Positions 15,281-42,839 of a DNA stretch of 46,599 bases are shown here, in pieces. Every line of letters starts with the position of its first letter. Within the stretch, counting starts at the first letter, position 1. The notes under the pieces are model-generated. The model did not search any database, had not been told where the DNA came from, and saw only the letters and a list, made by a program, of their open reading frames with translations. Source of the DNA: an uncultured Treponema sp. (lineage in GTDB: Bacteria; Spirochaetota; Spirochaetia; Treponematales; Treponemataceae); the NCBI GenBank assembly GCA_937892225.1, contig CALAUH010000082.1, positions 1-46,599 of the forward strand. Direction: 5' to 3'. Made by a program: the position numbers and the translations under genes.

Positions 15281-15370
15281 AAAAAAAAGACAGCCACTAT
15301 TCCTAGAAATAATGACTGTCTTTAACACATCAATTATATATATTTTATTATACTATTTTTTTAATGTCAA
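15281..15370 (-). promoter_or_regulatory. Conserved late leader, copy 1 (promoter, bulged hairpin, terminator)
   Basis: TTGACA-17-TAAAAT, then GATGTGTTAAAGACAGTCATTATTTCTAGGAATAGTGGCTGTC-T8. Confidence 0.85.
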
Positions 15371-15373
15371 TTA

Positions 15374-17350
15374 TTAATTAGTAACAAGTTGAACTGTTAC
15401 TCCTTGCATGGCTTTAGTAATTATTTCTTCCAATTTTGTTTCATTAAAAACAAAACCACCTTCTTTATCTACATCAGTAACCACACTTGCAACAGCATCA
15501 TAATAACTCTGTAACTTTTGATTATTACCTGTTCTTTTAGCTTCTTTTTCTAACTGAACTGCTGTAATATAAGCCTGAGCCTGTATAGATGTAGATGAAC
15601 CGTTAGTAGCTTCAAAAGCTAATTCTTTTAAACTTATTCCTACTGGATTATCTTTAACATTTCCAAAAACGCCTGAATCATATAAATCATCATTAACATC
15701 TGATACTTTCCAAACAATTTCATTTTGTAATCGTCTTAAATTATCAACATTAAAAGCTTCTTTTCTAGTAAGTTCATTTTCTAAATCTTGTGCTTTCGTA
15801 CCTGCTGTTTCGTTTGCATTAATTATAGTTCCATCATTTAATTTTATGCTACCATTTTGTATACCTGAAATTTTACCTCTCATATTATAATATTGACGTG
15901 CTAAGGTTGTAGAAAATCCCATTTTTTCTAACGCAGCAACCCATGAATTTTCATCGTTACCATAATATTTTGTAAGTTGAGAATTTAAATTTTGTAAATA
16001 TTTTTCATCAAAATTACCTTGTTCAAGATATTGTCTAACATCCTGAATACCATTTTTATCTTTACCTAAAACTTCACTTGCTGCCCGATACATTATAACA
16101 TCTTCAACAGAATTTAATCCTTTTGCTCCACCCATAGCATTGGCAAAAGTTTCTATTCTTTTCTGTCCTTCAGAACCAGACCAAAATGCACTGAATTTCT
16201 CTCCTTCAGATGCTACTTTTAATGCTTCCTGACTTTTCAACATATTATTAGTATTTACTACAAAACCCTTTGAAATACCTTTTTCCATAGCATTAGTTAT
16301 ACCCTGTATTAATTCATCAAATTGTACATCTGTAAATCCACCTTTACCTTTATTAGCAAATAAACTATTTAAAGTGTTTAAACCATTATTACCGTATTTT
16401 TGATATAATCCTACAAGATTTTCTATAGAATCTTTATCTGCATTTGTCCAATTAGCAGCATAAGCGGATCTCTGTACAACTTGCTCTATATCTGTTTTGT
16501 TAAATCCATATCTTGCTAATTTGTTTACATCATCAATAAAATCTGCATCTGACAAACCAGTTGCTATATTACGGGCTTTAACCATTTGTAATGTTGCAGT
16601 TGCCGCCGCCTTTGATTGTTCATCATACGTTTTGTATTTTATTGTTCCATCAGAATTTTTTTCATAAATATTACTTTTTCCATAAGCAATATTAAATTTA
16701 TCAAATCTATCAAAGTTTTCAGAGTACATTCTATATGCTTCGTTTTCAGTTTCTTTTTTAGCCGATACACCTTTTACAACCTGAGAGCCTAAACTTAATA
16801 AACCGCCAACTAAAGCAAGAGGAATTCCTAACGGTGTACCCATAAGAGCCGTACCAGCTCCCATCATAGAACTACCAAAACCTGATAATACACCTGATGC
16901 CGTATTTAATCCGGTAACTCCAGCATCTAGCCAGTTACCTCTCATCATCTGCCTTTGATATGCCTGATAACCTTGATAAGCACCTAAACCGATTCCAGTT
17001 ATTCCTAAAGTTGTAGATATACCGCTTTTTACATTACCGCCAAATCTTTTAAATATATTATTTTCACCTGAAACGTCATCTGTAGAACCTGGTGTTGTAC
17101 TTTGATTTATTGCTTTATTATTTTTAAGTTGATCATTGAAAACCTTGAAATTTGACATAACCTGATTAAGAACATCATTCAAACCTTGCAAATTAAAAGC
17201 AAGATTATTCATGAGTTTATCGCCCTGAACACCACCTATGCCATCAAGACCACTATTTTTAAGATTATCAGTAACGTTCTTAATATCATTAATACCTTGC
17301 TGAGTATTAAAACGTAAATTACCGGTTACATCAAATTCCATTGTTTCCAT
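15374..17350 (-). CDS. Tail tape measure protein
   Basis: Helical, G/A-rich hydrophobic stretch; position after tube and chaperone genes. Confidence 0.7.
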   Translation of the reverse strand: METMEFDVTGNLRFNTQQGINDIKNVTDNLKNSGLDGIGGVQGDKLMNNLAFNLQGLNDVLNQVMSNFKVFNDQLKNNKAINQSTTPGSTDDVSGENNIFKRFGGNVKSGISTTLGITGIGLGAYQGYQAYQRQMMRGNWLDAGVTGLNTASGVLSGFGSSMMGAGTALMGTPLGIPLALVGGLLSLGSQVVKGVSAKKETENEAYRMYSENFDRFDKFNIAYGKSNIYEKNSDGTIKYKTYDEQSKAAATATLQMVKARNIATGLSDADFIDDVNKLARYGFNKTDIEQVVQRSAYAANWTNADKDSIENLVGLYQKYGNNGLNTLNSLFANKGKGGFTDVQFDELIQGITNAMEKGISKGFVVNTNNMLKSQEALKVASEGEKFSAFWSGSEGQKRIETFANAMGGAKGLNSVEDVIMYRAASEVLGKDKNGIQDVRQYLEQGNFDEKYLQNLNSQLTKYYGNDENSWVAALEKMGFSTTLARQYYNMRGKISGIQNGSIKLNDGTIINANETAGTKAQDLENELTRKEAFNVDNLRRLQNEIVWKVSDVNDDLYDSGVFGNVKDNPVGISLKELAFEATNGSSTSIQAQAYITAVQLEKEAKRTGNNQKLQSYYDAVASVVTDVDKEGGFVFNETKLEEIITKAMQGVTVQLVTN

Positions 17351-17362
17351 ATATTACCTCTT

Positions 17363-17539
17363 TTAAGTCAAGTCATGTTTATTCAAAATATCGCTATCTG
17401 AATATCCTAACTCCCTTAAAATATCATCATTATCGTTTTCTTTTAATTTTTTCTTTGATTCATAATAAGATTTTCTTAATGAATCAATTGAAAAATTCAT
17501 ATTAAATTCAAAAACTATATATTGATAGTCATTATCCAT
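17363..17539 (-). CDS. Small tail assembly chaperone-associated ORF
   Basis: MDNDYQYIVFEF... start overlaps the end of 17532-18047; position equivalent to lambda T. Confidence 0.5.
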   Translation of the reverse strand: MDNDYQYIVFEFNMNFSIDSLRKSYYESKKKLKENDNDDILRELGYSDSDILNKHDLT

Positions 17540-18047
17540 CAATTCTTTGTTCACCGGAGAATTCATCAAACAAACCTGGTTCATCAGGATTATTGCTACT
17601 TCTATCGGCATCCACTTTGTTATTTCCTGGTCCTTTATTTGATTTAATCTTTTCCGTAACTTTCTGGCGAAAGGAATATGCCTTAGCATAAACCTCCTCT
17701 ATAAATTCCACATCTGGAATATCTCTAAAAGAAAAATTACTTTTCTTTTTAGCAAGTTCATACCAATCTGGACCACTTAAAACAACTACATCCAAATATG
17801 CAATCATCTGCATCATATTGTAAGTAATGTTATCAAAACATTGAACAGGAATTCCCATTAATCTACTAGCACAAACCCTAGAAATTGCTTCTAAATCTCT
17901 TGCACGAGGAAATTTAATTTTAAATTCACCTCTACTAGTATCAATAGTTTCTGTTACATCTTCACCCATAACAATACTTCTGAATAAATCTCTATTCTGA
18001 ATATCTGTTAATTCTTCTTCTTTTGTTTCTAATTTTTCTAATTCCAT
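17532..18047 (-). CDS. Tail assembly chaperone
   Basis: Acidic protein between tube and tape measure; GAGG RBS before ATG 18047. Confidence 0.7.
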   Translation of the reverse strand: MELEKLETKEEELTDIQNRDLFRSIVMGEDVTETIDTSRGEFKIKFPRARDLEAISRVCASRLMGIPVQCFDNITYNMMQMIAYLDVVVLSGPDWYELAKKKSNFSFRDIPDVEFIEEVYAKAYSFRQKVTEKIKSNKGPGNNKVDADRSSNNPDEPGLFDEFSGEQRIDG

Positions 18048-18085
18048 AATTTTTTTCCTCATTAAAATATATAAAAATATATAGA

Positions 18086-18120
18086 TTGTCTTTACAAAAT
18101 ATATAATTCTGTAAAGACAA
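18086..18120 (-). terminator. Hairpin after the tail tube gene
   Basis: TTGTCTTTACA / TGTAAAGACAA 11-bp stem. Confidence 0.5.
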
Positions 18121-18652: not shown

Positions 18653-20404
18653 CTATAATTCAATTGTAGTTTCGTATACATGATTTACAGCCGTAATAAA
18701 TACAAAATTTCTTGGAGCTGTTAAGTATCTTGCATACTGTAAATATACTTTATCACCGCTAAATCTTACAGAAATATTCCAAACGTTATCAGTTCCTTTT
18801 GGAATAATTAAACCTGAGATTTTCCATTCATTAGCCTTATCTTTTAAAGTCTGGATAATTGCTGATTCAGAAGTGTTATTAGTTCCACCAATTCCGGTTG
18901 CAAAAGCATTACGTAAATCTCTATCCATAAATAAAGCTTCACGTGTCATACTTCTTTCAACTGAAATTAAATCACCGTTACCCTGGAATGTTGTGATTGA
19001 ACGAATACAAATAAATTCGTTTACATTTTCAGGATTAGGATTACAGCAAGTAACACCATTTTTAATAAGGTTTTCAATATTTGAAATTGTACGTTTTTTT
19101 GTAAAACTTAAAACATTGATTGTTTTATAAGTTAAAGGTTCAGCAACACTCATAGCACTTTCCATACCAGCCAACATACAAGCAATAATAGAACCGCCGA
19201 TATTTTCAGAAGTGTTATTAATTGGATTAAGTGCAACGCCTGAATCAATTACAAGTGATGCAAATTTAGAATTAAGTGATTTTGCGTAATTAATACCGTC
19301 ATCATCTGAGATATTATAATTAGTTCCTAAGAAACAAGTTCTTTCTTTTCTGTTATTTACATTACTCATTTCTATACAATGAGCAACAATCTGAGCATGA
19401 ACTAAATTATCTGTTGATGGTGTTGCAATAATCTGAATATCCTCTGTTTCAAGTTTTTCGAGTGCCAACGCCCAGCTGTTAGTTCCACTTGATCCACCAG
19501 TAAAATATGTAAATACATCACCTGTAGTATCAGGAACTAATCTTGCAATTGATAAGATTTCAACATCATCAAATAATGGAATAGATTTAATTGCGTCTAT
19601 AAATGCCTGTAAATTAGAATAGAATGTTGCACCATCTGTAAGAGGTTCATCATCAACATATTCTGAAATAACAGTAGAAGTACAACTGTCTAATTCATTT
19701 GATTTTGCCTGAGAATCTGCATCTAAAAGATTAGCCGAATATATACCGCTATCGTTGATTTTAGTAACAACGTCTTGTAAATTTGGATAATCTTCAAAAG
19801 AAATTTCTAATTTATCTTCTGTAATTTCTACATTATCTTCAAAAGCCTGTAAAGTCATTCCTTCTGTAGTAATTGTACAAGTTGCTTTATCACCTTCACC
19901 ACCATAATTGATGAAAATTGACTGTTTACCAATGTTATCAATTACTGTGTTATAATCTTTGTAACCAGCTTCAATTTTACGATAATTTGCTCCTAAACTA
20001 CCGTTAGATACCATAATTTTAATCTGATTACAATGTGAGCCATAATCAGATGATTTAATTTTGAGTACATCAGTTTCAGAGTTTTTAAGTGTTACAGTTG
20101 ACTGTAAACCGTTATTAACTCTCATAGCGTATACTTTCTGTGGAATGTATACATTAGAACCTTTGAAAGCATAACCGATTCCTTTTAATAATTCACCGTC
20201 AATAAGTGTATCTTTAGCTTCTGAAAGTGAATTAAACTGTAAAAGTTCAAGCGGTTTTCCTCCCATTGAATTACCTAAAATTACAAGGTTTCCAGATGAT
20301 ACACCAGATGGACTTGTAATATTAGAACTTCTTGAATATACGCCAGGTACATAATGCTGAGAAATTTGACCTGCCGATTCAAATATTGCTGGACTTACTC
20401 CCAT
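18653..20404 (-). CDS. Tail sheath protein
   Basis: VPGVYS N-terminal motif, EPLTYK, IRSITT; 583 aa. Confidence 0.92.
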   Translation of the reverse strand: MGVSPAIFESAGQISQHYVPGVYSRSSNITSPSGVSSGNLVILGNSMGGKPLELLQFNSLSEAKDTLIDGELLKGIGYAFKGSNVYIPQKVYAMRVNNGLQSTVTLKNSETDVLKIKSSDYGSHCNQIKIMVSNGSLGANYRKIEAGYKDYNTVIDNIGKQSIFINYGGEGDKATCTITTEGMTLQAFEDNVEITEDKLEISFEDYPNLQDVVTKINDSGIYSANLLDADSQAKSNELDSCTSTVISEYVDDEPLTDGATFYSNLQAFIDAIKSIPLFDDVEILSIARLVPDTTGDVFTYFTGGSSGTNSWALALEKLETEDIQIIATPSTDNLVHAQIVAHCIEMSNVNNRKERTCFLGTNYNISDDDGINYAKSLNSKFASLVIDSGVALNPINNTSENIGGSIIACMLAGMESAMSVAEPLTYKTINVLSFTKKRTISNIENLIKNGVTCCNPNPENVNEFICIRSITTFQGNGDLISVERSMTREALFMDRDLRNAFATGIGGTNNTSESAIIQTLKDKANEWKISGLIIPKGTDNVWNISVRFSGDKVYLQYARYLTAPRNFVFITAVNHVYETTIEL

Positions 20405-20421: not shown

Positions 20422-20709
20422 TTAATTAGTTATTCCTAATCGTTTTTTAATATTTGCTACAATTTTATCCCAATCAGCAATTGTATGTTGTTCTTTTGAA
20501 TATTGTGATTTCAATGCTGCTTCAACATACTTATTCTGTGGATAACGCTGTAAATAATAAGTTAATCCATAAGTCTTTGTTTTAGCCATTAAACTTACAT
20601 CCTCCACTTTTTTTATTGATTTTTCAGGTTGTTTTATTTCCTGAACCACTTTTTTTTCATCAGTAGAAAAATTAATTTCTTCCTGAATTATCTCTTTACT
20701 CTTTGACAT
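20422..20709 (-). CDS. Hypothetical protein upstream of the sheath gene
   Basis: GGAGGT RBS; in-operon position. Confidence 0.7.
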   Translation of the reverse strand: MSKSKEIIQEEINFSTDEKKVVQEIKQPEKSIKKVEDVSLMAKTKTYGLTYYLQRYPQNKYVEAALKSQYSKEQHTIADWDKIVANIKKRLGITN

Positions 20710-21517
20710 GATTAATTACCTCCACGATAATATCCTTATTTAATTCTGTAATTTCTGTATCAAATATATATTGAGCAACGTTATAATCAACATCAAAAGA
20801 AATATGACTTCCATAAAGCAAAGTATCAAAATCAAAATTATAATTTGAACCTCTTTCACCTGATACTGAATTATCAAAAATACTACAATCAAAACAACTA
20901 TATTGTTCCTGTAAAACTTTTTCTAAACTACTGGTACATAAAAGTCTTAAATGTTCATATAATTCATTTTTTAGTTGATTGTTTTCACACCAAATTTCTA
21001 TTGATACTTTATCACGCCTTCTTGAATTAACCTGTATTCCGTAAACTTTACCTGGTATATCCTGAGAAGTTCTTGAATCTGCTATTTCTTTTAATTTTGC
21101 AACTCTTGACGGATCACTTATTAAAATAAATCCTGGAATTCTCTCTCTTTGAATTACACCGCCTTTTTTAATTACTTCAACTTCTCCATTAGAATTTATT
21201 TTTGTTTTATCTCTCATTCCTAAATTGATAAAATTATCTAATTCTGTAGAAGTCATACCGATTCCAAAAGTCTGATTAGGTACATTTGCTAAATCACCAG
21301 GTTTAGAATCAGATTGAGTTGATACTACTATTGCTGGAAATGTATCACTTGCCCTGATATGTTCATCTACAATCATGTGTGCAAAAGGATGATCATTGAC
21401 TACAGATATATGAAAATTACCGTAAACTTCGTCTAAATGAAGTCTATCAATATATCGTTTCATAACATCTGCGAGTGCCTGTTCTAATACAAAACCAAAA
21501 TTTATATAATATACCAT
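20696..21517 (-). CDS. Tail terminator/completion-like protein
   Basis: FPAIVV motif, position before the sheath; start MVYYIN after GAGG. Confidence 0.55.
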   Translation of the reverse strand: MVYYINFGFVLEQALADVMKRYIDRLHLDEVYGNFHISVVNDHPFAHMIVDEHIRASDTFPAIVVSTQSDSKPGDLANVPNQTFGIGMTSTELDNFINLGMRDKTKINSNGEVEVIKKGGVIQRERIPGFILISDPSRVAKLKEIADSRTSQDIPGKVYGIQVNSRRRDKVSIEIWCENNQLKNELYEHLRLLCTSSLEKVLQEQYSCFDCSIFDNSVSGERGSNYNFDFDTLLYGSHISFDVDYNVAQYIFDTEITELNKDIIVEVINHVKE

Positions 21518-21532: not shown

Positions 21533-21630
21533 AAAAAAAAAGACAGCCATAAATTTACTAGAAATTTATAGCTGCCTTTAAGACACACTTAATCTATAAA
21601 TATTATAAATTAATAATCGTTATACGTCAA
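21533..21630 (-). promoter_or_regulatory. Conserved late leader, copy 2
   Basis: TTGACG-17-TATAAT, then AGTGTGTCTTAAAGGCAGCTATAAATTTCTAGTAAATTTATGGCTGTC-T9. Confidence 0.85.
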
Positions 21631-26650: not shown

Positions 26651-26662
26651 TTTTCTATCCTC

Positions 26663-27283
26663 CTAGTTATTGTTTTTAACAATAGTTTTAATTTTTGCCC
26701 AAACATTTGAGCTAATTTTGTTGCCTTTCATAGCTTTCTGGAATTCAGTATTGTAGAATCCAACTTCTTCAAGACCAATTTCACCTTTTTTAGCACTAGC
26801 TACTAAAGCGGATTTAAGAATTTCAAAATCTTCATTAGTAGGTTTAATTAAAATAGGTGTATTTCCTACAGCATTATCCTTACCAATAGATTTTTCAACA
26901 ACAGTCTGACGTGATACTGGAGTTTTAAGATAATCACCAAAACTCTTTGTTACATCAATCATGTTGTTCTGCAATTCTTCAATTGATTTTTTCAAACAAG
27001 AAATTTCTTCTTTCTGAGAATCAATTGTTTCTGCCATTGATTTCATCAATTCAGTTGCATCAAGATAATCAGATTCTTCATCATTCATTGATTTTTTTAC
27101 GCCACATTTTTCAATCTTTTCATCTTCAGAAACATAATCTGTTTCTTCATCATCAAATAATGTATCATCTGTTACTTCTTCATCTTCTGAATCCATTTTT
27201 TTCTTCTTTTTATCTTCTTCAGGATTTTCCTTAAAAGATTTAAGAAGTTCATCAATTGTAGAACTAAAATTTCCTTTAGCCAT
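26663..27283 (-). CDS. Nested in-frame scaffold protein
   Basis: GGAGG RBS upstream of internal ATG 27283 (MAKGNFSS...). Confidence 0.6.
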   Translation of the reverse strand: MAKGNFSSTIDELLKSFKENPEEDKKKKKMDSEDEEVTDDTLFDDEETDYVSEDEKIEKCGVKKSMNDEESDYLDATELMKSMAETIDSQKEEISCLKKSIEELQNNMIDVTKSFGDYLKTPVSRQTVVEKSIGKDNAVGNTPILIKPTNEDFEILKSALVASAKKGEIGLEEVGFYNTEFQKAMKGNKISSNVWAKIKTIVKNNN

Positions 27284-28150
27284 TTTAATTCCTCCCTGTA
27301 ATATTATTTCAGAAAGAATTTCACTTGCTTTTGCATCGTCAAATCCATTTCTGATTAAATACTCTTTAATTTCAGATTCAGTTTCTAATATCCCTGAATC
27401 TATTGCTTTTACTGTTTTTTTAATTATTTCAGATTCCATATCTGTAGACTTTTCAAAATCATCTTCTTTTGTATCTGCATTTTTAATATCACCATCTGTA
27501 ATATCTAAAAGTTTTACAGTCTTTTCTTCTAAATCTTCATTTTGTAATGCTCTACCGCCTGAATAACTTTCTGCATCTGTTCCACTACCAGCAACTAAAG
27601 ACTTACAAAAATCTACAACGCCAATAGATTTTGCAAATTTTGCACTTCCTACTGTCCAATTCACCGGACTACAAGTAAGTGCTAAATCATTCCACATAAA
27701 TTCTGTTACAGTTTCAGAACCATCTTTATTTTTCTTAATTTTTGGCATAATACCGCCAATACTTGCTTTTACTAACTTTGACTTATTTTTAAGTAAATCA
27801 ATATAAGGTTTAGCAGCATCAATTCCTGAATATAAAATTCCTTTTACAAAAGTTTTTTTACTTATTGGATCAAACTTTACTGAAATAGGTTCACCGATAA
27901 TTTTTTCTTTATGAGATTCTACACTTCCATCAGGATTTCTTGTTTTATGCTGGTGATCATCTGAAATTACACCGTTTGTAATAAAATATTCTTTAGATTT
28001 CTGTAATGCACTTTGTAAAGTTATCTGATTCTGTAAATCTAAATTTTCATTACTTGCTTCTACTTCAAATTTATAATTTCCGTTTTCATCTTCTTCACCT
28101 GAAATAGATTTACATATATCCTGGATAATTACATCATTATCTAATTCCAT
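26663..28150 (-). CDS. Prohead protease-scaffold fusion
   Basis: ASNENLDLQ, DH, IGEP, ASIGG, LALT..PVN protease motifs; acidic coiled-coil C-half with many KS motifs. Confidence 0.85.
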   Translation of the reverse strand: MELDNDVIIQDICKSISGEEDENGNYKFEVEASNENLDLQNQITLQSALQKSKEYFITNGVISDDHQHKTRNPDGSVESHKEKIIGEPISVKFDPISKKTFVKGILYSGIDAAKPYIDLLKNKSKLVKASIGGIMPKIKKNKDGSETVTEFMWNDLALTCSPVNWTVGSAKFAKSIGVVDFCKSLVAGSGTDAESYSGGRALQNEDLEEKTVKLLDITDGDIKNADTKEDDFEKSTDMESEIIKKTVKAIDSGILETESEIKEYLIRNGFDDAKASEILSEIILQGGIKMAKGNFSSTIDELLKSFKENPEEDKKKKKMDSEDEEVTDDTLFDDEETDYVSEDEKIEKCGVKKSMNDEESDYLDATELMKSMAETIDSQKEEISCLKKSIEELQNNMIDVTKSFGDYLKTPVSRQTVVEKSIGKDNAVGNTPILIKPTNEDFEILKSALVASAKKGEIGLEEVGFYNTEFQKAMKGNKISSNVWAKIKTIVKNNN

Positions 28151-28175
28151 TATTTTACCTCAAAATAAAAAAGTT

Positions 28176-28292
28176 AAAAAAAAAAGACAGCCACAACTTT
28201 TTAAGTCATGACTGTCTTTTGACACATCTAAAAAATAAATATCTTAATTATAATCTATTAATATTATAAGACTAAACTTTTTATTTTGTCAA
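28176..28292 (-). promoter_or_regulatory. Conserved late leader, copy 3
   Basis: TTGACA-18-TATAAT, then GATGTGTCAAAAGACAGTCATGACTTAAAAAGTTGTGGCTGTC-T10. Confidence 0.85.
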
Positions 28293-28296
28293 GTTA

Positions 28297-28536
28297 TTAA
28301 TTATCTTCATTTTTTGGATTACCAAACATTTTTCTTCTTTGTTCAAGCATATCTTCAACATGTTCTTTTGCAAGTCCACCCCATGTAATATCAATTTCAG
28401 CAGGTAATAAATATTTACCATCAAGACTAATCTGAAATTCACCATCACGATTACGAACATACACGCCATCATTAAATGATAGATAAAATTTATTTGTAGG
28501 TTCATTTATATCAAATTCAATTTTTTCTTCTTTCAT
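28297..28536 (-). CDS. Small acidic protein downstream of the RelA/SpoT-domain gene (possible antitoxin)
   Basis: AGGAGG RBS; has its own promoter. Confidence 0.7.
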   Translation of the reverse strand: MKEEKIEFDINEPTNKFYLSFNDGVYVRNRDGEFQISLDGKYLLPAEIDITWGGLAKEHVEDMLEQRRKMFGNPKNEDN

Positions 28537-28554
28537 TTCAAACCTCCTTTTAAA

Positions 28555-28584
28555 AGTATAAACTAATTAGTTTACTATTGTCAA
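28555..28584 (-). promoter_or_regulatory. Promoter containing a palindromic operator
   Basis: TTGACA-18-TATACT; TAAACTAATTAGTTTA at 28559-28574. Confidence 0.7.
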
Positions 28585-28586
28585 GT

Positions 28587-30250: not shown

Positions 30251-33200
30251 TTATCTATTTTTACAACAGCATTTAATTGCTTCTGCAACTTTATAAGATA
30301 TAGTATTGAATAATTCAGGTTGTGTAGCATCATAATCCATATAATCATTATCTACAAATTCTTCTTCTTCAATATCATATATATCCATAAAATCAAATAA
30401 AGATTTACTAATATCTATTCCTTTTTCTTTAATAACATTTTCAAAATTTCTTTTAAATTCAGGATATTTCATTGAAAAAGCAAGTAATCTATGTCCGTAA
30501 TCATAACTATTTTTATAAATATTAGTTCCAGAACCATTTTTATAAGATTTTTCTGCTTTTAATAATTCTTTATATCCTTTACTTAAAGTTTCATCATCTG
30601 CATTATTTATTGAATTTTTTAATTTATCATAAGCTGATTCTGTTGCAATTCTTTCAGATAAATTATTCATATATTCTTCATATTGCTTAGTGTTTTTTTC
30701 TTCTTTTTTATTTTTTTCTTCTTTTTTAATATTAAAATTATTTTTATTATTTTCATAATAACCGGATAAATCTATATTAAACATAGGCATAACTATATTA
30801 ATACTTGAATCATCACTAATTGTAAATGAATGAGTTGATACATCTGAGAACAATAAATTTGATTCATTTCCTGAGAGTGCATCTAATAAATATTCATAGT
30901 TTACCATAATATAATCATCATAATCCTTATTTTTGAATTTAATTCCATCTGCTTCGCCGACTTTTACCCCATCAAGCATTACATCATCACCTTTAAATTC
31001 TAAACCAATAGCATTATGTTTTTTATTAATTGCACCTTCTTTTTTCATTGTTTTAATTTTATTTATTAATTCAATATTATTAAGTCTTACTTTTTGATTA
31101 TTATTTTCAGGTATAACTTTTTCATATTTAGGAAATTGTCCATCAACTTCTATTTTTTTAATTTTAATCTGATTGTTTTTTGTATCAATATTAACATAAG
31201 AATTTTCAGGAATTCCATCAAGTTTACCAACTTTAACTATCTTCATTCTTCTACCATCAGTTGCAATAAGAGAACCATCTTTATAATAAACGTGTGTCAT
31301 AAAATATCTATTTTCATCTTTTGAAGCATTATTAGTAAGTTTATTTAATTCAGTTTCAAGACTTTTAGAATATGGCATTTCTACTTCATTTTCACCTGAT
31401 TTTCTATTTTCTGCAATTATTTTTTTATCATCAATATTTACTGAATCTTTTTTAGCATTTTGATTACCTTTCATGGCATCACTACGATTCTGTTGTTTTT
31501 CAGAATCAGTTTCTTTATTTTCTATTTTCTTTTTATAATCTTCTATTGCATCATAATACACATCTGCACTTTCTTTGCCCCATTTTTCTACAAATTGTTC
31601 CTTAAATTCATCAAGTGATAAATTGTTATTAACAGAATCTTCAATAAAATTATTAACTAAAGTTTTTAAATCTTTTCCATGTTCTATATCATCAATTATT
31701 TCTTTTGCAGCAATTCCATTATAACTTCTTTCACCTTCACGTTTTATGAGTTTTTCCATAGCATTAATCTTTTCTGTATTATTCATAAATTCCATTTGTT
31801 GTAACAGTTTACCTTTTACTTCTTTTATATTTTTATCTTTATTCTGTGATCTATTAGATAAAACTTTATTAGATTCATTTTTTGAAACAGAATTAACATT
31901 TTCAATGTCTTTACCATAAATAAATGCTGTTCCTAAACCACCATTATCAGATAATGTAAATTTATCAGAGTTTTTTGCTGCAATTTCCTTTATTTTTGCC
32001 TGTTCCGTTTTAGACATATCCTGCAATCTAATATTTACATACTTTTTAGTAGATTCTTCATCATCAATATATGGAGTAATATCAATAAATGAACCATCAC
32101 GTGTATTAGTTGTTTGCTGCTTAACAAAGTTAATAAGATTTTCTGTTTTTATTCCACCTTTCCATGCGTTTTTATTGCCTTTCATAGCTTCTGAACGATT
32201 CTGGTGTTTTTCGGCTTCGGATTCCAATTGTTTTATTCTTTGAAAAATAGAAGCGGCTCTCCTTGCCATATCATTTGAAAGATCATATTTCTTTTCAGAA
32301 TGAAGTCGGTTATTTTCTTTTACTACTTTTTTCTGTAATTCTTTAAGATAATCAACATCTGTAATAGAATTAATTTCAGAATCAGAAATATTTAATTCAG
32401 ATTCTTTTTTATTCTCTTTATCATTTAATACTTTTTCAATATATTTCTGCCTTTCTGTTTCCATTTCATTACTATCATCAGGTTTTAATTTACTAATAAG
32501 ATTTTCAATATCATTTCCCAACATCCTTATATCTTTTTGAGCTGCAACTTTATCGGCTGTTTCCATTGAATCCATTTTAGAATGAATTTTATCCATTTCA
32601 TTAAGACTATTTAAAATTCTTTTCTTTGCTGATTCATTTGTAAGACGATTTCCTTTTGAATCCTGAATCCAATATGTTTCTTTTACAGATTCTTTTTTAT
32701 TTCCATCTGCATCAAAATCAGTTTCTTTAATATCTCCGTCTTTCATGGCTTCAAGCCATTTATTCCATCTCTCTAAATCTTTTTTATCCGTTTCAACATC
32801 AGCTTTAGCACCTTTTGTCCATTTATGATTTTCTCCTTTTTCTTTAAGAAAATCATTATATCTTCGTTCATCATCCTTTAAATCATCTTTCTTATCAGCA
32901 ATTTTTTGTTTAATATCTGATTCTGTCAAAACAGTTCCCATATCTGTAGTAAATGTATGTTCTTTATTTTTACCTCTTACAATATTTTCTTCATTACGAT
33001 TATTTAATTCTGACTGTAACTTTTTTATATATTCAGGATTATCCTTTACAATTTTTTTATCTACATAAGTTCCGTATTCATTTTTTATTTGATTTTCTGC
33101 TACACCTAATTGTTCTTGTAATTCAGTAATTGTGTCTTTAAGTTCTTTATCACTACTTTTTTCTGGATGATTAATAATGTCAATAATATTTTTAATAGGT

Positions 33201-33715
33201 TTAATTTCTTTTTTTGATATATTTCCATTAAAACCATTAGATTTATTATCAATAGCTGCTCTTAATTTATCCATAATTGGTAAATCTACACCGTTAGCAT
33301 CCTGGAATAATGAATGATTACTCATACAGAATTGATAGAGTTCTTCTTCTGTTTTACAGTTTTCAACTTTATGTATTAAACGTGTCATTGATGATTTTGC
33401 ACCACGATCCATTTTGTCAAAAACTCTTACCCATCTTGCAGGACTTGTACTAACTTTTTTATATTTTTTTCCTCGCCAAATTCTAACTGTTCCTACGCCG
33501 TAACCTGATTTTTCAATCCACTTTCCATCTAAAGATTTTTCAATGTGTGTATAATGTTTTTCTGTTTGATTAAAATATTCAATTGCTTTTTTATATTCCT
33601 GAGATTCTTTTTTCTTCAATATTTCAATGACTTCTTTTTTTAATTCATCTAAAGAAGGTTTTTTAAGTGATTTATTAATTTCTAAAAACGATGATTTTTT
33701 AATAACAAAATTCAT
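30251..33715 (-). CDS. Large polyvalent protein with a partial DnaN (beta-clamp)-like region
   Basis: ASKDENRY, IATDGRRM, DGQFPKYEKVIP, NYEYLLDAL, IVMPM motifs. Confidence 0.75.
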   Translation of the reverse strand: MNFVIKKSSFLEINKSLKKPSLDELKKEVIEILKKKESQEYKKAIEYFNQTEKHYTHIEKSLDGKWIEKSGYGVGTVRIWRGKKYKKVSTSPARWVRVFDKMDRGAKSSMTRLIHKVENCKTEEELYQFCMSNHSLFQDANGVDLPIMDKLRAAIDNKSNGFNGNISKKEIKPIKNIIDIINHPEKSSDKELKDTITELQEQLGVAENQIKNEYGTYVDKKIVKDNPEYIKKLQSELNNRNEENIVRGKNKEHTFTTDMGTVLTESDIKQKIADKKDDLKDDERRYNDFLKEKGENHKWTKGAKADVETDKKDLERWNKWLEAMKDGDIKETDFDADGNKKESVKETYWIQDSKGNRLTNESAKKRILNSLNEMDKIHSKMDSMETADKVAAQKDIRMLGNDIENLISKLKPDDSNEMETERQKYIEKVLNDKENKKESELNISDSEINSITDVDYLKELQKKVVKENNRLHSEKKYDLSNDMARRAASIFQRIKQLESEAEKHQNRSEAMKGNKNAWKGGIKTENLINFVKQQTTNTRDGSFIDITPYIDDEESTKKYVNIRLQDMSKTEQAKIKEIAAKNSDKFTLSDNGGLGTAFIYGKDIENVNSVSKNESNKVLSNRSQNKDKNIKEVKGKLLQQMEFMNNTEKINAMEKLIKREGERSYNGIAAKEIIDDIEHGKDLKTLVNNFIEDSVNNNLSLDEFKEQFVEKWGKESADVYYDAIEDYKKKIENKETDSEKQQNRSDAMKGNQNAKKDSVNIDDKKIIAENRKSGENEVEMPYSKSLETELNKLTNNASKDENRYFMTHVYYKDGSLIATDGRRMKIVKVGKLDGIPENSYVNIDTKNNQIKIKKIEVDGQFPKYEKVIPENNNQKVRLNNIELINKIKTMKKEGAINKKHNAIGLEFKGDDVMLDGVKVGEADGIKFKNKDYDDYIMVNYEYLLDALSGNESNLLFSDVSTHSFTISDDSSINIVMPMFNIDLSGYYENNKNNFNIKKEEKNKKEEKNTKQYEEYMNNLSERIATESAYDKLKNSINNADDETLSKGYKELLKAEKSYKNGSGTNIYKNSYDYGHRLLAFSMKYPEFKRNFENVIKEKGIDISKSLFDFMDIYDIEEEEFVDNDYMDYDATQPELFNTISYKVAEAIKCCCKNR

Positions 33716-33768: not shown

Positions 33769-33907
33769 AAAAAAAAACAGCCGACTTTCAAAAGAAAATC
33801 GACTGTCTTTTAAAACACATCTTCAAAAATGTTTTTTGAAACATCCGGTTGGGAATATTTCGATGTAGTAATAATTTATTATATACTCAACTTAATTGAT
33901 TTGTCAA
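33769..33907 (-). promoter_or_regulatory. Conserved late leader, copy 4
   Basis: TTGACA-18-TATAAT, then GATGTGTTTTAAAAGACAGTCGATTTTCTTTTGAAAGTCGGCTG-T9. Confidence 0.82.
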
Positions 33908-35801: not shown

Positions 35802-38800
35802 TTATTTTCTAATAAGGAATCTGCCTTCATGAATAAAGAATAAAGGTAAACTCTTTTTAAGATATGGGAATCTTTCCTCTAATTCTGCTCTTATTTCAGC
35901 ACGTAAAGAATCATCCATTAATCGTAAATTATCAGAAATTTCTTTAGTAGTCATATTAACAACTTGATCAACTGTATTATGCTTTTGTTTTGACTTTTCT
36001 TCTTCAAGTTGTTTACGAGCTTCTGCAATATATTCTTCACGTTTATTTTTAATGTCATTCAAATCAGATTCTATCTGCTGTCTTTTAGTTGATATTTCTT
36101 CTAATTTTGAATCTACATTATTATTTTCAACACCTTGTTTATCCCAGTATAATTTTATGCCTTCGATTTTTCCATTAAGTTCTTTGATGTTTCTTTCCTG
36201 GAATTTCAAGTTATCTTTTGCACGTGTAAGATTCATTTTAGCATTTTCAAATGTATTATTAGCGTTTTCAAGTTTAGTATTTGCCATTTCAATTAAATCT
36301 TTATCATTAGCTTTTTTTGCTGTAGCAACTGTTTTTTTACATTTTTCAATTTCTGCTTTAGCATCTTCTAAACTTGCCTGTTTAGAATTAACATTATCCT
36401 GAGCATTTTTCAAGTCATTATTATAACTTTCAATATGATTACTTAATCTATCATATTGCTGTTTTGTGTCATACAGATTGTCATATCTTGCATTTTCCAT
36501 ACGTAAATTTCTTTTAAGTTCTTTTTGTTCAAACATGATTTTCATATTTGCTCTTTTTTCAGGATCTTTAATTAACTCATATTTTACTTCTTCTGGGTTA
36601 TAATCTTCAACATTAAGAGAATCGCCTTTATAACTCCACAACGCATTAAGACGTGATGATTTTTCATCGTATTTCTGATACATCATAGCATCAATAGAAT
36701 CATTCATTAATGGATAAACAATATGAGTAATACCCTGTTTATTACCTTGTCGCCAGATACGACCTTCAACCTGGATTGTTTCAGTTGGATTCCAACCTAA
36801 CATTGTGTTATAAAGAGTTGTAGCATTTCCATTAAGTGATACACCTTCTTTTATTGTTTCTGAACCGATAATAACTTTAATTTTTCCATCAGGATTATTA
36901 AAATCGTCTTTAATCTGCTCTTTCATATCAAGAGAAGTATCGCTGTTCATAAATGCAATAGAATCTTCTGGCATACCTTTAGATACAAGATAATCTTTCA
37001 TAGCCTGAAATCCATTTACCTTATCACCGTAACTAACATCTTCATCATTTGCTTTTGCTTTTTTACCTACACCACGAGGCATATATATTACCTGAGATTC
37101 GCCAGGTCTTTCTTTCCATTGTTTTACAACAGAATCACAAACAAACTGTAATTTTGGTGATTCTTTAACAACGTCATCCGGTGATGGAGGTGTAAAATTA
37201 TCATATACACTCATATAATCAGCATAGAATTTTGGATCAATTAAAGATGGTGATAAAACAGCCATACGCATATTATTCATAGCAACTAATACATCACCTG
37301 AATTCTCTTTAGATGTTGAGAACATTCCATCCATACGCATTTTTTCAACTTCCATAATCTGCTTTTGTAATGGAGTTAAGTCTAGTTCAGGCATGTGTAA
37401 TTGTTTTCTAGGTCTAATTACACCAGCTTCCTCACCATCAACTTTATCAATAAATTCTGTAATAAGATTCTGTAAAGCACCTAAGTTCTTAAAGTTTTTC
37501 ATTGTCTGAGATTCTACAGCTTCACCTTTTGCATTGATTTTGAAATCAGGTTTTAATTCTGCAAACTCTCTTAAAAAGTCTTGTAAGTTATAAATATTCA
37601 AATCCTTTAATCTATTTCTAGCACATAGAGAAAGAATATTATAAATTTCTACAGGTGAATTATTAAACGGTGTAGCACTTAATCCGAAAAATCCTCTACC
37701 ATCATTTTGTCGCTGTATCAATTGAGAGATTGCAAACATTTTCATACCACGTGAAGAAGATGCACCACTTAATCCCTGGAATTCATTAGCAAGTCTACCA
37801 TCACCATCTTCCTTAACTGTGTGTCCCCAGTAATCAGTTTTACGTTCTTTTGTAAATCTATTAGACTTTCCAATAGTTGATGGAATTGAGAAAACATTTT
37901 TGAAATTATGAAGTTCATCTACAGTAATATGGTCTATTCCTAAATCTTCCCAATATACAGCACCATCTTTAGCCGATGCTGATTTACCTAATAATTTCAT
38001 TACCCTTTCTTTTTCTTTTGCCTTTTCTCTATCAGTTCTTGTATCTTCAACTAAATTTCCATTTTCGTCATAGTCATAAATGGATTGAGAATCAAGCATA
38101 TCATCTTTTAAATCACCTTCAAGAGTTTCATCCTTAAAAGTAACTTTTTGTAAAGCTTCATAAGTACAAACGTTGATTGAATTTTCAGGAAAGTTATAAG
38201 TTCCATCAGCATTTTTATATTGTCCTATATCCTTTTCTGAGAAGTTACCAAGTTCATTTACATTAATATTAGGAAAGTGTTGATGAATTTCTTTTATCCA
38301 CTTTTTATATACAGCTTTAGGGACCATGATTAATGGTTTCTTTGCTTTTCCTGTTTCAAGCTGATTTACAGTTGCGACAATACCACAGAAAGTTTTACCA
38401 ACACCAACATCATAAGCAAGAATTCCGTTACCTTTATTACACAATTCTGAAATACCTTTAATCTGCTGGTCTGTCGGATCAAATTCTTTTTTTCCTTTAT
38501 GGGTATTCAAACCTTCTACAAATAATGGTATTTTTTTGAAATCAGGATTAACAATTGCATTAAATTGTTTATTCCATGCACTTTCAACTTTTTCTTTTTC
38601 TTCTTTAGGTAATTTACGTAAGAAATCATTAAACAATCTTTCTGCTACTTCACGTCTACTAACTTTCTTTTGGTTAGCAATCATTTTGTTAGTTTCTGCT
38701 TCTGCTTCCTTATCTTCTTTATTCCATCCTCTTGCTCTTTCTGTTTGAACCGGTTTTTGATGGATATAATCCCAAATATCTGACCATTTAAGATTATCGT

Positions 38801-41800
38801 CAAGTTCATTTTTAGATATTTTAATTCCCCAGTCTGATCCATAAGAATTAAATCCTAAATAATCAAATAAGAATTTATCAACTAAATTTTTACCTTCTTC
38901 ATCTACAAAAGTTTTACTAAAATTAGATAATGGAGATACTGTAAACTGTTCAACGGTTTTTTTAACCGGTTTTGCTGCATTTAATAAAGATTTTTTATAA
39001 TCATATTCATCTTTTGAAATATTATCTTTATTTAATTCAAGTTCATTAAGTTTATCATAAATATTACCACTAGCATAGTTTACGATATTTTCATACCCAT
39101 TTTCTGTTTTAATAAAGTTTTTATTATTCTCAATTTCTTTTTTCTCATTTTCTGATAAATCATTAAATTCTACAATACCTTCCCAGTTAGTTTTCTTCCA
39201 GAATTTCAAATCCTGTTCAGGAACTTCTTTACCAAACCGTTTAGAAAATTCGTCTGCTGTCATATTATGACCAACTGATTCAGTATATACATCACCTTTT
39301 TTTGCTTTCTTTACAGTTTCTTTTTTAATTAATTTTTCAGCATTTTTATTTCCTTTCATAGCATTAGAACGATTTTCATGTTCTTCTGCATCTGTTTCTG
39401 CTGGTAAATCAATTATTTCATTATTATCTAATCTAACTTTATAACCTATTGTTTTACCGTCTTTTTTTCTGAATCCTGTAACAACTCCATTACCTTTATC
39501 TGTTTCAACAGTTTCACCGTAAGAATAATTAGTTTTAATTTTATTAGGAATTGTTATCTTAGTTTCAATATTTTGTGTAATTTCTGCAATCTGTTTATCA
39601 ACTTCCACAGATTTTGTATCAATCATTTCAATAGCTTCTGCAACTGTTTTACCCTCAGGCAAATTAATAACAGCACTACCCCAGTTACCGTCAAAAGATT
39701 CTGTTCCAATTACATGAGAAGGATTATCTGTAAAGTATTTATTATCATTAAAATCTTCAAGTTTTCCAGGTTCTTTTCTAAGTACAATAATATCTGTTCC
39801 TACATCTGTACTAGAGAATGTTCCTTTAGGTAAACGCCATGCTTCAATTAATTTACCTTTTTTTGCTATTTCTTCTTTTGCTTTAGAATTTGCATTTCTT
39901 AAAAATCCAGATGGTACTACAAACGCCATAATTCCATCATCTTTAAGAGTTTCAAGAGTTTTATCTATAAAATAAGTTTCATATCTTTTATGGATTTTTT
40001 CATTAGAAATACCTGAATATATATCGTTATAATCCATATATGGAGGGTTGCCAACAGCAACGTCAAATTTTTCACCTTTATATTCTTTTTGTACAGAATT
40101 ATTTTTAATGAATCCCATTGTTTGTTGGAAAGCACCTTGTTTTACTTCTGCATCAGGATGTAAAAGTTTAGCTATTCTTGCCGAGGTTTTATCAAGTTCA
40201 CATAAGGTGAATTTTTCAGGTCTACCCTCTGCAAATCTTCCAGTTGCTGCCGATGGTTCTAAAACTTTTTTATCTTTATTAGGATTATACTTGTCTACAA
40301 TTTCCCATATTTTTTTAATTACATCACGTGGAGTATAAAATTCTGATAAAACGGCTGCATCTGTTTGACTTCCTTCTTTAAGTCCTCCAGCACCTTCATA
40401 ATTTTTAAGAATTTCTTTATCTGCTTCTGTAATTTCTGAATCGGGTTTTTTAAGAATTTCAAGACACTTAGCACGTATTATTTTTGCTTCTTTAACACTT
40501 AATCTGCCTGTACTAGTTCCTGTTCCTCTACTATCCCTTCCTGATCCGTTTCCTCTAAGTCCGATTCCAGATTCGCTATCATTGTATACAGATTCGCCTG
40601 AGTTACTTCCATTTTCTGACGTACTAACATTGATACCGCCATCTGTTTGATTGTTTCCGGTGAGTATCTCTCCATTAGTATCGGATAATCTATTTCGTTC
40701 AATTCCAGAGTTATTTTCTCCATTTGCAATACCTCCATTTGCATTATGTACCTGATTATTAGTTTCTGTCAAGTTTTCAGTAATACCGTATTTTCTAGCA
40801 TTTTGATTTCCTAACATGGCAATTTTATTTCCATGTTCCTGGTATAATTCATTAATAACGTGTACAACCTCAGAAAAATTAACTTGATTTACTGGAATTC
40901 CTTTTTCTTTTGCAAGTCTTTCCATAATTTTTTTCTGTGCAAACACATATCTTTCATCTTGATATATATTATCACTTAATGAATTGTCTACGGTATATTC
41001 ATCAAATAAATTGTTTAATGCATCTTGTTCTTTTAAATTAAATTTAAATTCTTCTGTAGCACTTATATTTAATGATTCAGGAAGTTCAGTTAAAATTCTT
41101 TGTAATGCTTCAATATGTCCTTTTATCTGAGCCTGTGCCTTTAAGTAATTATTTTTAACATCTTCATCTTTAATAACATCAATCATATCCTGATAAGACA
41201 TATCATCTTTATTTAATTTATCAATTTCACGTATAATTGAATTTCTACTTGGAATTTCATTATCTTTTAATTTTTGAGATAAAGAAGAATAATAATTATT
41301 TTCTACATCATCCATTATCTCATCAAGAACAGAAACAGTTATTGCCTGATTATTACCTTCTAACTGATCTTCAACATAACCGGAATTATCATAATATAAA
41401 TCAACTTCTAACTGATTAAATGGTGATTTATGAGCATCTTTTAAATCTTGTAAATCAATATATCCCCATTCAGCCATTTCAGTATCACCATTAAGAATAG
41501 CATATCCAAAAGCTTCATTGTTACCATCCCATTCAGTAATATACCATTCGCTACCACTGGCATTAAAAAGTCTTAATCCTGCTTTATGTTTTTCTTTTTC
41601 TTCATCATAAGATTTATACCAATTATTTTTTATATCTATAATTGAATCTGCAATTTCTTTAATTTTATTTTTATAAAATTCTTTTTCTTCGCCTTTTTGA
41701 GAAAGTTCTGTAATAGTTTTAAGTTCACCAATACCCATAAACTTAGGAAATCCAACTTTAACAGCATTTTCCTGTTCAGGTGTTAATTTATTTGGATCAT

Positions 41801-42755
41801 CATCTTTTACAACATCTGTATTTTCTTTTGCATATTTTACTTCTTTTGGCAACTGTCTTTTTACATAAGATTCAATCTGTTTTCTTTCTTCTTCTGTTAA
41901 TCCATTATCTTTATTAGTATTCTTATCTTCATTTAATATTTTTTTAGCATCTTCATCATTTTTATCAAATTGTCCATCCCTAAATGCCTGTAAAATTTCT
42001 TTAGATTCACCTATTTTTTTATTAGCAATTCCTAAATCTTTCATAGCATCATCTGTAATCTGTTTCATATCGCTATGAGTTTTTCCGTATTCGTATGCTT
42101 TTTTCTTTAATTGGTCATCTGTATTTTCAATTACTTCTTCAACCTTTTCTACAGTTTTTTCATCTTTTGCAATATCTTTACCTGTATACATACTCCAGAT
42201 TTTTCTCATCAATGATGGATTAGCTTTCCATTTTTTTTCTTTTTCTACACTTGTTTTAATCTCAGGTACTTTTTCAACTGGAGTTTCCATATCAGGATTG
42301 TTAATTTTTTCTGCAACCTTTTGTTTAATTGGTTTCTTAAATTTTTCCTGATTGTCTTTATTTGCAAATCTTTTATCCCAAATATTTCTATGAGAAAAAT
42401 ATTCCATTACGTGCTGATACCATGTTTTTTTATCTGCTCCGTAATCATGTTCAATATTTTGTTTTGTATATGCTGCTTCAATTTTTTTAACTTCTTCTGG
42501 ATTACCCTTAAAAAAGAATTCACCGATATTTTTAAGAATTTTATCTGCTGTATCTTTCAAAAAGTCTTTAATATAATAATATCTATAACGTGTTACAACT
42601 TTCTGCCCTTTATTATTAGTTCTAGTTTTTTCTGTTATATTTTCTCGATAAATATAACTACCACCAACCTGTTCGCCTTTTTTAGCCTTTTCAATATAAT
42701 TATCAAAAAAACTAATACCTTTTAATTCATTTGCATTGAAATAAAGTTTAGACAT
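35802..42755 (-). CDS. DarB-like giant protein: DUF2958-like domain, N6-adenine methyltransferase, SNF2/SF2 helicase, coiled coil
   Basis: WYITEWD...FG...EWGYIDL; VLEPSAATGRF and NPPY; DVGVGKT, DELH, SATP, QVEGRIWRQGN. Confidence 0.88.
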   Translation of the reverse strand: MSKLYFNANELKGISFFDNYIEKAKKGEQVGGSYIYRENITEKTRTNNKGQKVVTRYRYYYIKDFLKDTADKILKNIGEFFFKGNPEEVKKIEAAYTKQNIEHDYGADKKTWYQHVMEYFSHRNIWDKRFANKDNQEKFKKPIKQKVAEKINNPDMETPVEKVPEIKTSVEKEKKWKANPSLMRKIWSMYTGKDIAKDEKTVEKVEEVIENTDDQLKKKAYEYGKTHSDMKQITDDAMKDLGIANKKIGESKEILQAFRDGQFDKNDEDAKKILNEDKNTNKDNGLTEEERKQIESYVKRQLPKEVKYAKENTDVVKDDDPNKLTPEQENAVKVGFPKFMGIGELKTITELSQKGEEKEFYKNKIKEIADSIIDIKNNWYKSYDEEKEKHKAGLRLFNASGSEWYITEWDGNNEAFGYAILNGDTEMAEWGYIDLQDLKDAHKSPFNQLEVDLYYDNSGYVEDQLEGNNQAITVSVLDEIMDDVENNYYSSLSQKLKDNEIPSRNSIIREIDKLNKDDMSYQDMIDVIKDEDVKNNYLKAQAQIKGHIEALQRILTELPESLNISATEEFKFNLKEQDALNNLFDEYTVDNSLSDNIYQDERYVFAQKKIMERLAKEKGIPVNQVNFSEVVHVINELYQEHGNKIAMLGNQNARKYGITENLTETNNQVHNANGGIANGENNSGIERNRLSDTNGEILTGNNQTDGGINVSTSENGSNSGESVYNDSESGIGLRGNGSGRDSRGTGTSTGRLSVKEAKIIRAKCLEILKKPDSEITEADKEILKNYEGAGGLKEGSQTDAAVLSEFYTPRDVIKKIWEIVDKYNPNKDKKVLEPSAATGRFAEGRPEKFTLCELDKTSARIAKLLHPDAEVKQGAFQQTMGFIKNNSVQKEYKGEKFDVAVGNPPYMDYNDIYSGISNEKIHKRYETYFIDKTLETLKDDGIMAFVVPSGFLRNANSKAKEEIAKKGKLIEAWRLPKGTFSSTDVGTDIIVLRKEPGKLEDFNDNKYFTDNPSHVIGTESFDGNWGSAVINLPEGKTVAEAIEMIDTKSVEVDKQIAEITQNIETKITIPNKIKTNYSYGETVETDKGNGVVTGFRKKDGKTIGYKVRLDNNEIIDLPAETDAEEHENRSNAMKGNKNAEKLIKKETVKKAKKGDVYTESVGHNMTADEFSKRFGKEVPEQDLKFWKKTNWEGIVEFNDLSENEKKEIENNKNFIKTENGYENIVNYASGNIYDKLNELELNKDNISKDEYDYKKSLLNAAKPVKKTVEQFTVSPLSNFSKTFVDEEGKNLVDKFLFDYLGFNSYGSDWGIKISKNELDDNLKWSDIWDYIHQKPVQTERARGWNKEDKEAEAETNKMIANQKKVSRREVAERLFNDFLRKLPKEEKEKVESAWNKQFNAIVNPDFKKIPLFVEGLNTHKGKKEFDPTDQQIKGISELCNKGNGILAYDVGVGKTFCGIVATVNQLETGKAKKPLIMVPKAVYKKWIKEIHQHFPNINVNELGNFSEKDIGQYKNADGTYNFPENSINVCTYEALQKVTFKDETLEGDLKDDMLDSQSIYDYDENGNLVEDTRTDREKAKEKERVMKLLGKSASAKDGAVYWEDLGIDHITVDELHNFKNVFSIPSTIGKSNRFTKERKTDYWGHTVKEDGDGRLANEFQGLSGASSSRGMKMFAISQLIQRQNDGRGFFGLSATPFNNSPVEIYNILSLCARNRLKDLNIYNLQDFLREFAELKPDFKINAKGEAVESQTMKNFKNLGALQNLITEFIDKVDGEEAGVIRPRKQLHMPELDLTPLQKQIMEVEKMRMDGMFSTSKENSGDVLVAMNNMRMAVLSPSLIDPKFYADYMSVYDNFTPPSPDDVVKESPKLQFVCDSVVKQWKERPGESQVIYMPRGVGKKAKANDEDVSYGDKVNGFQAMKDYLVSKGMPEDSIAFMNSDTSLDMKEQIKDDFNNPDGKIKVIIGSETIKEGVSLNGNATTLYNTMLGWNPTETIQVEGRIWRQGNKQGITHIVYPLMNDSIDAMMYQKYDEKSSRLNALWSYKGDSLNVEDYNPEEVKYELIKDPEKRANMKIMFEQKELKRNLRMENARYDNLYDTKQQYDRLSNHIESYNNDLKNAQDNVNSKQASLEDAKAEIEKCKKTVATAKKANDKDLIEMANTKLENANNTFENAKMNLTRAKDNLKFQERNIKELNGKIEGIKLYWDKQGVENNNVDSKLEEISTKRQQIESDLNDIKNKREEYIAEARKQLEEEKSKQKHNTVDQVVNMTTKEISDNLRLMDDSLRAEIRAELEERFPYLKKSLPLFFIHEGRFLIRK
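40499..40723 (-). CDS. Candidate overprinted 74-aa acidic protein nested in the DarB-like gene
   Basis: GGAGGT 7 nt before ATG 40723; helical-looking sequence while the host frame is a G/N/S/R-rich linker. Confidence 0.5.
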   Translation of the reverse strand: MEKITLELNEIDYPILMERYSPETIKQMAVSMLVRQKMEVTQANLYTMIANLESDLEETDQEGIVEEQELVQAD

Positions 42756-42775
42756 AAAAATAAACCTCCAGGAAT

Positions 42776-42839
42776 AAAAAAAAGACAGCCACTAACTGAA
42801 AAAAATCAGTAATGACTGTCTTTATTTTTTAGACACATC
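42776..42839 (-). promoter_or_regulatory. Conserved late leader, copy 5
   Basis: GATGTGTCTAAAAAATAAAGACAGTCATTACTGATTTTTTTCAGTTAGTGGCTGTC-T8; no clear -35 box upstream. Confidence 0.82.

Follow-up and report, generated by a model that had tools for sequence, protein, structure and literature searches.

The window (the whole 46,599-nt stretch analysed, contig C82) shares a 55-nt overlap at both ends with contig C114 of the same 3.0-Mb spirochaete bin, and the two join into a 78,654-bp circle. The bin is assigned to a spirochaete on account of its three FlaA genes. This circle is a temperate myovirus, which encodes an integrase, CI-like repressors, terminase, portal, capsid, sheath and baseplate as assigned by Pfam and PHROG profiles. 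A spirochaete host is supported by the presence of capsid relatives in 3 of 60 related genomes and of a tandem DUF2292-like protein, discussed below as a candidate regulator, in 19 of 400 genomes of the host family; the capsid is also found on three short contigs from bins labelled Anaerovoracaceae, Clostridiaceae and Lentisphaeraceae, which may reflect misbinning or a wider range. The same bin contains a second related phage (G000: C204, C215, C216, C218 and C259), with a capsid 54% identical and a rearranged gene order.

Several other features of the phage were recorded. A serine invertase-like gene adjoins the 789-aa tail-fibre gene (window 5188–9026), pointing to possible fibre switching, while a 548-aa late gene (window 28587–30233), also present in relatives, matches Pfam Gp_dh_C (GAPDH C-terminal) above the cut-off. 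The capsid N-terminus (residues 18–62) and the protease (179–223) have a 45-aa segment in common at 58% identity (window 26465–26599 and 27482–27616), as they do in relatives. The C5 DNA methylase gene lies in several pieces around an HNH gene (window 242–1033, C114 29872–32076), and a short tandem heptamer repeat is located at the contig junction (window 22–75).

Seven operons, namely those of portal/MuF, DarB-like, 1154-aa, protease/capsid, tail, baseplate and presumed lysis genes, are each headed by a gate, which consists of a sigma70-type promoter, a weak hairpin with a one-base bulge and a strong terminator overlapping the hairpin, in this order (Table 1). The sequence-only reading had reported five such elements on the minus strand, and all five are real, each with the box, the terminator, the T-tract and the downstream start codon, but the total is seven, as two copies had been missed: copy 6 (contig C114 2604–2662, minus strand), outside the window and ahead of the portal gene, and copy 7 (window 1790–1842, plus strand). 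Copy 2 does lie at 21533–21588, where it had been placed, but its box begins at 21589. The hairpin of copy 7 recurs at the corresponding position of each of the five homologous genes inspected, its own included, and a lysis role may be inferred for the five-gene operon behind it.

Table 1. Gates, the genes behind them and the two candidate factor genes (window positions unless a contig is named; promoter scores out of 12).
Feature	Position	Strand	Remarks
Copy 7 promoter, sigma70-type	1730..1758	+	11/12, 17-nt spacer
Copy 7 bulged antiterminator hairpin	1790..1808	+	GGU/GCC lower stem, G bulge, AUAU/AUAU upper stem
Copy 7 intrinsic terminator	1802..1842	+	-19 kcal/mol
Five-gene operon behind copy 7	1867..3785	+	membrane-protein rich; weak Pfam/PHROG matches only
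First gene behind copy 1	13886..15262	-	phrog_1015 tail protein, head of baseplate/tail-fibre operon
Copy 1 terminator	15281..15323	-	
Copy 1 bulged hairpin	15314..15331	-	
Copy 1 promoter	15342..15370	-	11/12
First gene behind copy 2	20696..21517	-	upstream of sheath (18653-20404), tube and chaperone genes
Copy 2 terminator	21533..21579	-	
Copy 2 bulged hairpin	21570..21589	-	AGU/GCU lower stem
Copy 2 promoter	21602..21630	-	11/12
Head maturation protease, first gene behind copy 3	26663..28150	-	followed by major capsid gene (25190-26650)
Copy 3 terminator	28176..28220	-	
Copy 3 bulged hairpin	28210..28228	-	
Copy 3 promoter	28263..28292	-	12/12
1154-aa gene behind copy 4	30251..33715	-	
Copy 4 terminator	33769..33811	-	
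Copy 4 bulged hairpin	33801..33821	-	
Copy 4 promoter	33878..33907	-	12/12
DarB-like methylase/helicase gene behind copy 5	35802..42755	-	
Copy 5 terminator	42776..42822	-	
Copy 5 bulged hairpin	42814..42839	-	
Copy 5 candidate promoter	42874..42902	-	9/12, weak
MuF/InPase gene	42933..46586	-	downstream part of portal operon gated by copy 6
Tandem DUF2292-like gene (candidate factor)	contig C114 6313-6651	-	
Zinc finger gene (candidate factor)	contig C114 6164-6346		

The near-consensus sigma70 promoters claimed for four copies are found at copies 1–4 (11–12 of 12), while copy 5 reaches just 9/12. In DNA this AT-rich, promoter-like sites are no more numerous than chance predicts (88 vs 94; 84 vs 106), and the promoter signal thus lies in position and not in number; the circle holds 20 promoter matches scoring at least 11, with a gate behind 6 of them. 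Ungated strong promoters at window 1318, 28584 and 34579 (minus strand) precede small, moron-like ORFs of no assigned function. Four RNA runs from one study share 0.05–0.35 of the words of window 26000–30000, which is word sharing alone and is not counted as evidence.

All seven hairpins are 18–26 nt long with a single 1-nt bulge, and the 3′ strand of each is the 5′ arm of the terminator, so the two folds exclude each other. This mutual exclusion, already proposed from the window, is supported by homologue sequences and covariation, and the identification of each element as an intrinsic terminator agrees with the folding of the full leaders (−19 to −24.5 kcal/mol, z −4.6 to −6.9). The hairpin alone amounts to −3 to −5 kcal/mol and is not more stable than shuffles; the best fold with the hairpin enforced lies 11.2–16.6 kcal/mol above the terminator in 7 of 7 copies, and in truncated leaders the hairpin is the minimum-energy form in 5 of 6 cases. 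As the hairpin is 11–17 kcal/mol weaker than the terminator, termination would be the default and a ligand acting during transcription would be needed, as for LicT-RAT. The exact core pattern, which the divergent copy 2 escapes, has 4 matches vs 0.00 expected from 100 shuffles, and after shuffling of the 40 nt upstream a bulged hairpin arises with a probability of 0.003–0.03 per copy by a detector designed from these copies. A pattern search of viral contigs gave 20 matches, 7 of which are the gate element and the others seemingly unrelated.

Relatives were taken from capsid-based loci and whole records, and in the closer clade nine types of gene, examined at their heads, yielded 140 distinct positions. 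A terminator is present at 82 of these; the other 58 include genes inside operons and sites overlooked by the detector, one of which is copy 1 of the window itself. A strict bulged hairpin lies on 72 of the 82 terminators, a few of these hairpins being called in a shifted register, and the motif can be seen by eye or with one mismatch in several of the 10 others; in the host control, 38 of 235 terminator-like sites pass the hairpin detector (16%; 1.3 Mb, coding regions unmasked). Covariation was counted in the 79 of 82 copies anchorable on the terminator arm, which come from one phage lineage, so that the counts are neither independent nor probabilities. When the upper stem and the adjacent pair alone fix the bulge position, 70 of 79 copies pair at both outer positions of the lower stem, against a permuted mean of 35.3 (max 47) or, permuted within gene class, of 49.3 (max 59). 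When the lower stem fixes it instead, 61 of 79 pair at the first two positions of the upper stem (permuted mean 36.3, max 48). The pairing, whose covariation the sequence-only reading had made its own test, therefore covaries in homologues above all permutations. Lower-stem types in the 79 copies include GAU/GUC (28), GGU/GCC (20), CGU/GCG (8), AGU/GCU (7) and AAU/GUU (4), and upper-stem types include UG/CA, GU/AC, CC/GG, UU/AA, UC/GA and AU/AU, giving compensatory changes in at least five lower-stem and at least seven upper-stem types. In a sequence-only alignment of 13 copies, in which copy 7 is misaligned, pairing amounts to 93.6%, a value reached by 0 of 500 shuffles, with 11 two-sided changes; for both folds, no shuffle equals the percent paired or the covariation score, and the number of antiterminator pairs changed on both sides is matched or exceeded in 85 of the 500.

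The bulged base had been described as a G, which is true of 7 of 7 copies in this phage but not of the family (T 33, G 29, A 15 and C 2 among the 79 anchored copies); a conserved G bulge is thus rejected, T being the commonest base. The near-constant feature is a U-G pair under a single 5′ unpaired base; certain copies, GC-rich or divergent ones, have C-G there. The fold is retained, in different letters, by GC-rich relatives; one subclade adds a second bulge, and the divergent phage G073 has different internal loops. Hairpin loops vary in length and sequence, and this variability together with the G-U pair favours an RNA over a DNA site. In the second phage of the bin, the gates have A or T as the bulge; in the subclade of L069–L071, G585 and G615, both paralogues, the protease and tail copies, carry a U-C mismatch at the second upper pair; and the baseplate copy of G062 (near 72000) has the bulged hairpin with no T-tract behind the terminator stem. 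Taken together, the RNA switch is very probably real.

The sequence-only reading regarded the releasing RNA-binding protein as not identifiable in the window; a putative reader can be named on the adjoining contig C114, where a gene just before the terminase genes encodes a 112-aa tandem DUF2292/YezD-like protein. Among 97 ORFs of at most 300 aa, only this protein (by profile) and a zinc finger protein are found in 11 of 11 clade records, the screen being biased by incomplete records. The DUF2292-like repeat is visible by eye, and the halves of the protein repeat each other (hhalign 68%). In profile–profile comparison with canonical YezD/DUF2292, the C half reaches 83% (E 9e-6, score 26.5 vs shuffled max 10.3) and the N half 50% only. 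Pfam DUF2292 (PF10055) does not match the protein itself and matches 1 of 57 family members (E 2e-4), while no relevant NCBIfam model is matched by family members. About 55 full-length relatives are available, and the family has a median pI of 7.7, which is not strongly basic; its conserved residues include K22, E26 and R84. The predicted structure is a confident two-repeat model (pLDDT 88), for which the fold search gave at best a VIA Z of 5.2 (a designed protein) and Foldseek nothing at E 0.001, results with no bearing on novelty; the Atlas search matched only unnamed phage clusters, and word-index protein searches were weak. Homology to the YezD/OscA domain is moderately supported by these comparisons.

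From 19 genomes, 13 further prophage regions picked via this protein were drawn for contig extent, and 11 of them contain at least one gate; of the two ungated regions, one is 4 kb and the other, of 60 kb, has a single-domain protein. G071, G072 and G409 encode a short single-domain version and the zinc finger and have no gates, so the protein does not always travel with gates. G038 and G069, however, combine gates with single-domain versions. Neither the 112-aa protein nor the zinc finger was found in two outgroup phages, whose protease genes have no gate at their heads where examined. The candidate gene has an ungated promoter of its own (L033:6651–6686, C114, minus strand; 11/12) with 6 nt from the −10 element to the ATG, which suggests a leaderless mRNA, and this ungated promoter would require repression in the lysogen; a short palindrome is located directly upstream of its −35 element. 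In G063 (L050:5598–6225) the tandem gene is split, its second half carries a fused Xre-like helix-turn-helix segment, and the gates are kept. A conserved two-hairpin leader covers the ribosome site before the single-domain gene of two gateless phages (G071 17290–17430; G072 57975–58125, minus strand), possibly for autoregulation. It is likely that some phage protein reads the hairpin, and the tandem DUF2292-like protein is, on balance and judging from sequence, the best candidate.

The host bin has a single canonical DUF2292 gene (G000:C18:5708–6020, L276), behind which lie a hairpin (U-G under 5′ GG / 3′ A loop) overlapping a terminator and, further on, a gene for an ABC ATPase. The host bin is the only one of 301 genomes searched in the phylum to have canonical DUF2292, so that its contig C18 may be a recent acquisition or a binning error. 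Read by eye, 4 of 8 Bacillota records (two near-identical) also have such a hairpin overlapping a terminator behind canonical DUF2292; the pair under the 5′ G is U-G in three and C-G in one, and two of these four loci are annotated as preceding phosphoadenylyl-sulfate reductase. The canonical YezD hairpins have a purine mismatch above the bulge, where the phage gates usually have U-A, and no Rfam family covers them. For canonical DUF2292, no locus was confirmed in viral contigs and no match was obtained in named phages. The proposal that DUF2292/YezD/OscA is an RNA-binding antiterminator family, used in bacterial sulfur operons and co-opted as a fused pseudo-dimer to serve as the trans master switch of late operons in spirochaete myoviruses, a mode distinct from Q, activators and sigma factors, could about equally well be right or wrong.

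Were the elements ordinary duplicated terminators, the box would be a by-product, in keeping with the passing of the detector by 16% of host terminators and with a hairpin no more stable than shuffles; the compensatory changes in both stems argue against this, and a terminator right behind a strong promoter would be senseless without a bypass. Such a reading appears largely refuted already by hairpin enrichment and covariation and is hardly credible. Processive antitermination of the lambda Q/N type, with the box as a site on the DNA for loading or pausing, or else as a nut-like element in the RNA through which RNA polymerase is modified, is distinctly improbable: the order of promoter, short leader and terminator, with a gene for a regulator immediately ahead of the late genes, does recall pR′-tR′-Q, but the box covaries with the terminator arm and sits 10–56 nt from the −10 element, the seven promoters share only AT-rich 6-mers, the 108 phage ORFs include no Q, N or NusG-type match, and a processive factor would have no need of seven separate gates.

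The same switch might instead be read by the 60-aa CxxC...HxC zinc finger, alone or complexed with the DUF2292-like protein. Its gene, found in all 11 clade records, is always adjacent to the DUF gene, often overlapping it, and phage zinc fingers such as Mu Com bind RNA; yet it has no link to any family beside such hairpins (profile–profile to YezD 0.8%), in G038 and G069 one copy lies behind a gate, though a second lies before that gate, and it also occurs in gateless phages, which leaves this reading rather unlikely. A fold search with its model (pLDDT 79) gave a best Z of 2.1, with no bearing on novelty. It is unlikely as well, and a little more so, that the reader of a real hairpin is a host factor or an RNA acting in trans, or that the hairpin only sets a fixed terminator leak with timing from genome copy number. 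This reading accords with the DUF2292 gene and similar hairpin of the host bin and with the hairpin being the minimum-energy form of truncated leaders in 5 of 6 cases, but a DUF2292 gene present in 1 of 301 phylum genomes cannot serve the lineage, and the 11–17 kcal/mol gap and the conserved destabilising bulge make an unaided leak unlikely.

Distributed, non-processive antitermination of the late genes, with the tandem DUF2292-like protein as the most likely reader, thus appears fairly probable. Host RNA polymerase would initiate at the seven sigma70-type promoters and by default stop at the intrinsic terminator about 50–100 nt downstream. The short hairpin, comprising a lower stem of 3–5 bp, the U-G pair, one unpaired 5′ base and an upper stem of 3–6 bp, would form first in the nascent RNA. 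In the lytic cycle a phage protein, probably a fused pseudo-dimer of the small bacterial YezD/OscA domain, would bind this hairpin and block the terminator lower stem, so that the portal, DarB, head, tail, baseplate and probably lysis operons would open together. If true, late control by many local protein-gated RNA switches would be a new mode in phages, and the uncharacterised DUF2292/YezD/OscA family, found before bacterial sulfur genes, would gain a function and a minimal binding site; a 20-nt site with a protein of 55–112 aa is also a potential compact orthogonal switch. Next to nothing has been described of gene control in Treponema-type phages, and the main text of a survey of 38 prophages does not mention termination (PMC11144348).

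The regulatory logic itself is known and RAT/CAT-like, while the protein and the RNA family are uncharacterised; the window has no Rfam match at gathering score or at E up to 1, and a literature search covering few subscription journals and no supplements found no paper on the motif or on a DUF2292/YezD antiterminator. In lambda, the constitutive host promoter pR′ is held off by the early terminator tR′ until Q, loading at a DNA site, acts processively on one operon. The gates resemble this control in having a host promoter, a short leader and a terminator before late genes, with the regulator gene at the early/late border, but each of the seven operons has its own RNA gate. Pfam and PHROG matched no Q homologue in the phage ORFs, and the words shared by the promoters are AT-rich 6-mers.

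The sequence-only reading recognised the elements as neither BglG/SacY RAT nor ANTAR sites, which is borne out by their shape, the CAT domain and the loops. RAT elements are 29–33 nt long with two conserved internal loops and are bound by the CAT-domain proteins BglG, SacY and LicT (PMC5393181, as far as consulted). As in RAT, a short weak hairpin shares its 3′ strand (6–10 nt) with the terminator 5′ arm, and as in LicT-RAT a two-fold reader of an irregular stem would be expected to stabilise the hairpin during transcription. Unlike RAT, the gates are 18–26 nt with one 1-nt bulge (a second in one subclade) and control phage late operons instead of sugar operons; the CAT domain (PF03123) has 0 matches in the bin (89% complete, both phage contigs included), while the control matched 4 of 14 genomes. 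An ANTAR site consists of twin hairpins, which are recognised through their loop residues A1 and G4 (PMC3369936, as far as consulted). The arrangement resembles that of AmiR, NasR and EutV in that one RNA-binding protein would gate several terminators of one cluster, but the gate is a single hairpin with variable loops, its conserved part being the stem bulge. No ANTAR-domain protein was matched among the 108 phage ORFs.

A further comparison is with DUF2292/YezD/OscA (PF10055). In the part of the source consulted, oscA is co-transcribed with cysP and linked to chromate resistance (PMC3596284), and no regulatory mechanism for OscA/YezD was found in the literature searched. The phage protein has in common with this family the unit of a helix and a beta-hairpin with the (F/Y)G..G pattern, and the gates have in common with its loci a terminator overlapped by a hairpin in which the pair below a 5′ unpaired base is U-G or C-G; unlike YezD/OscA, two units are fused in the phage protein, which is proposed to act in trans on seven sites.
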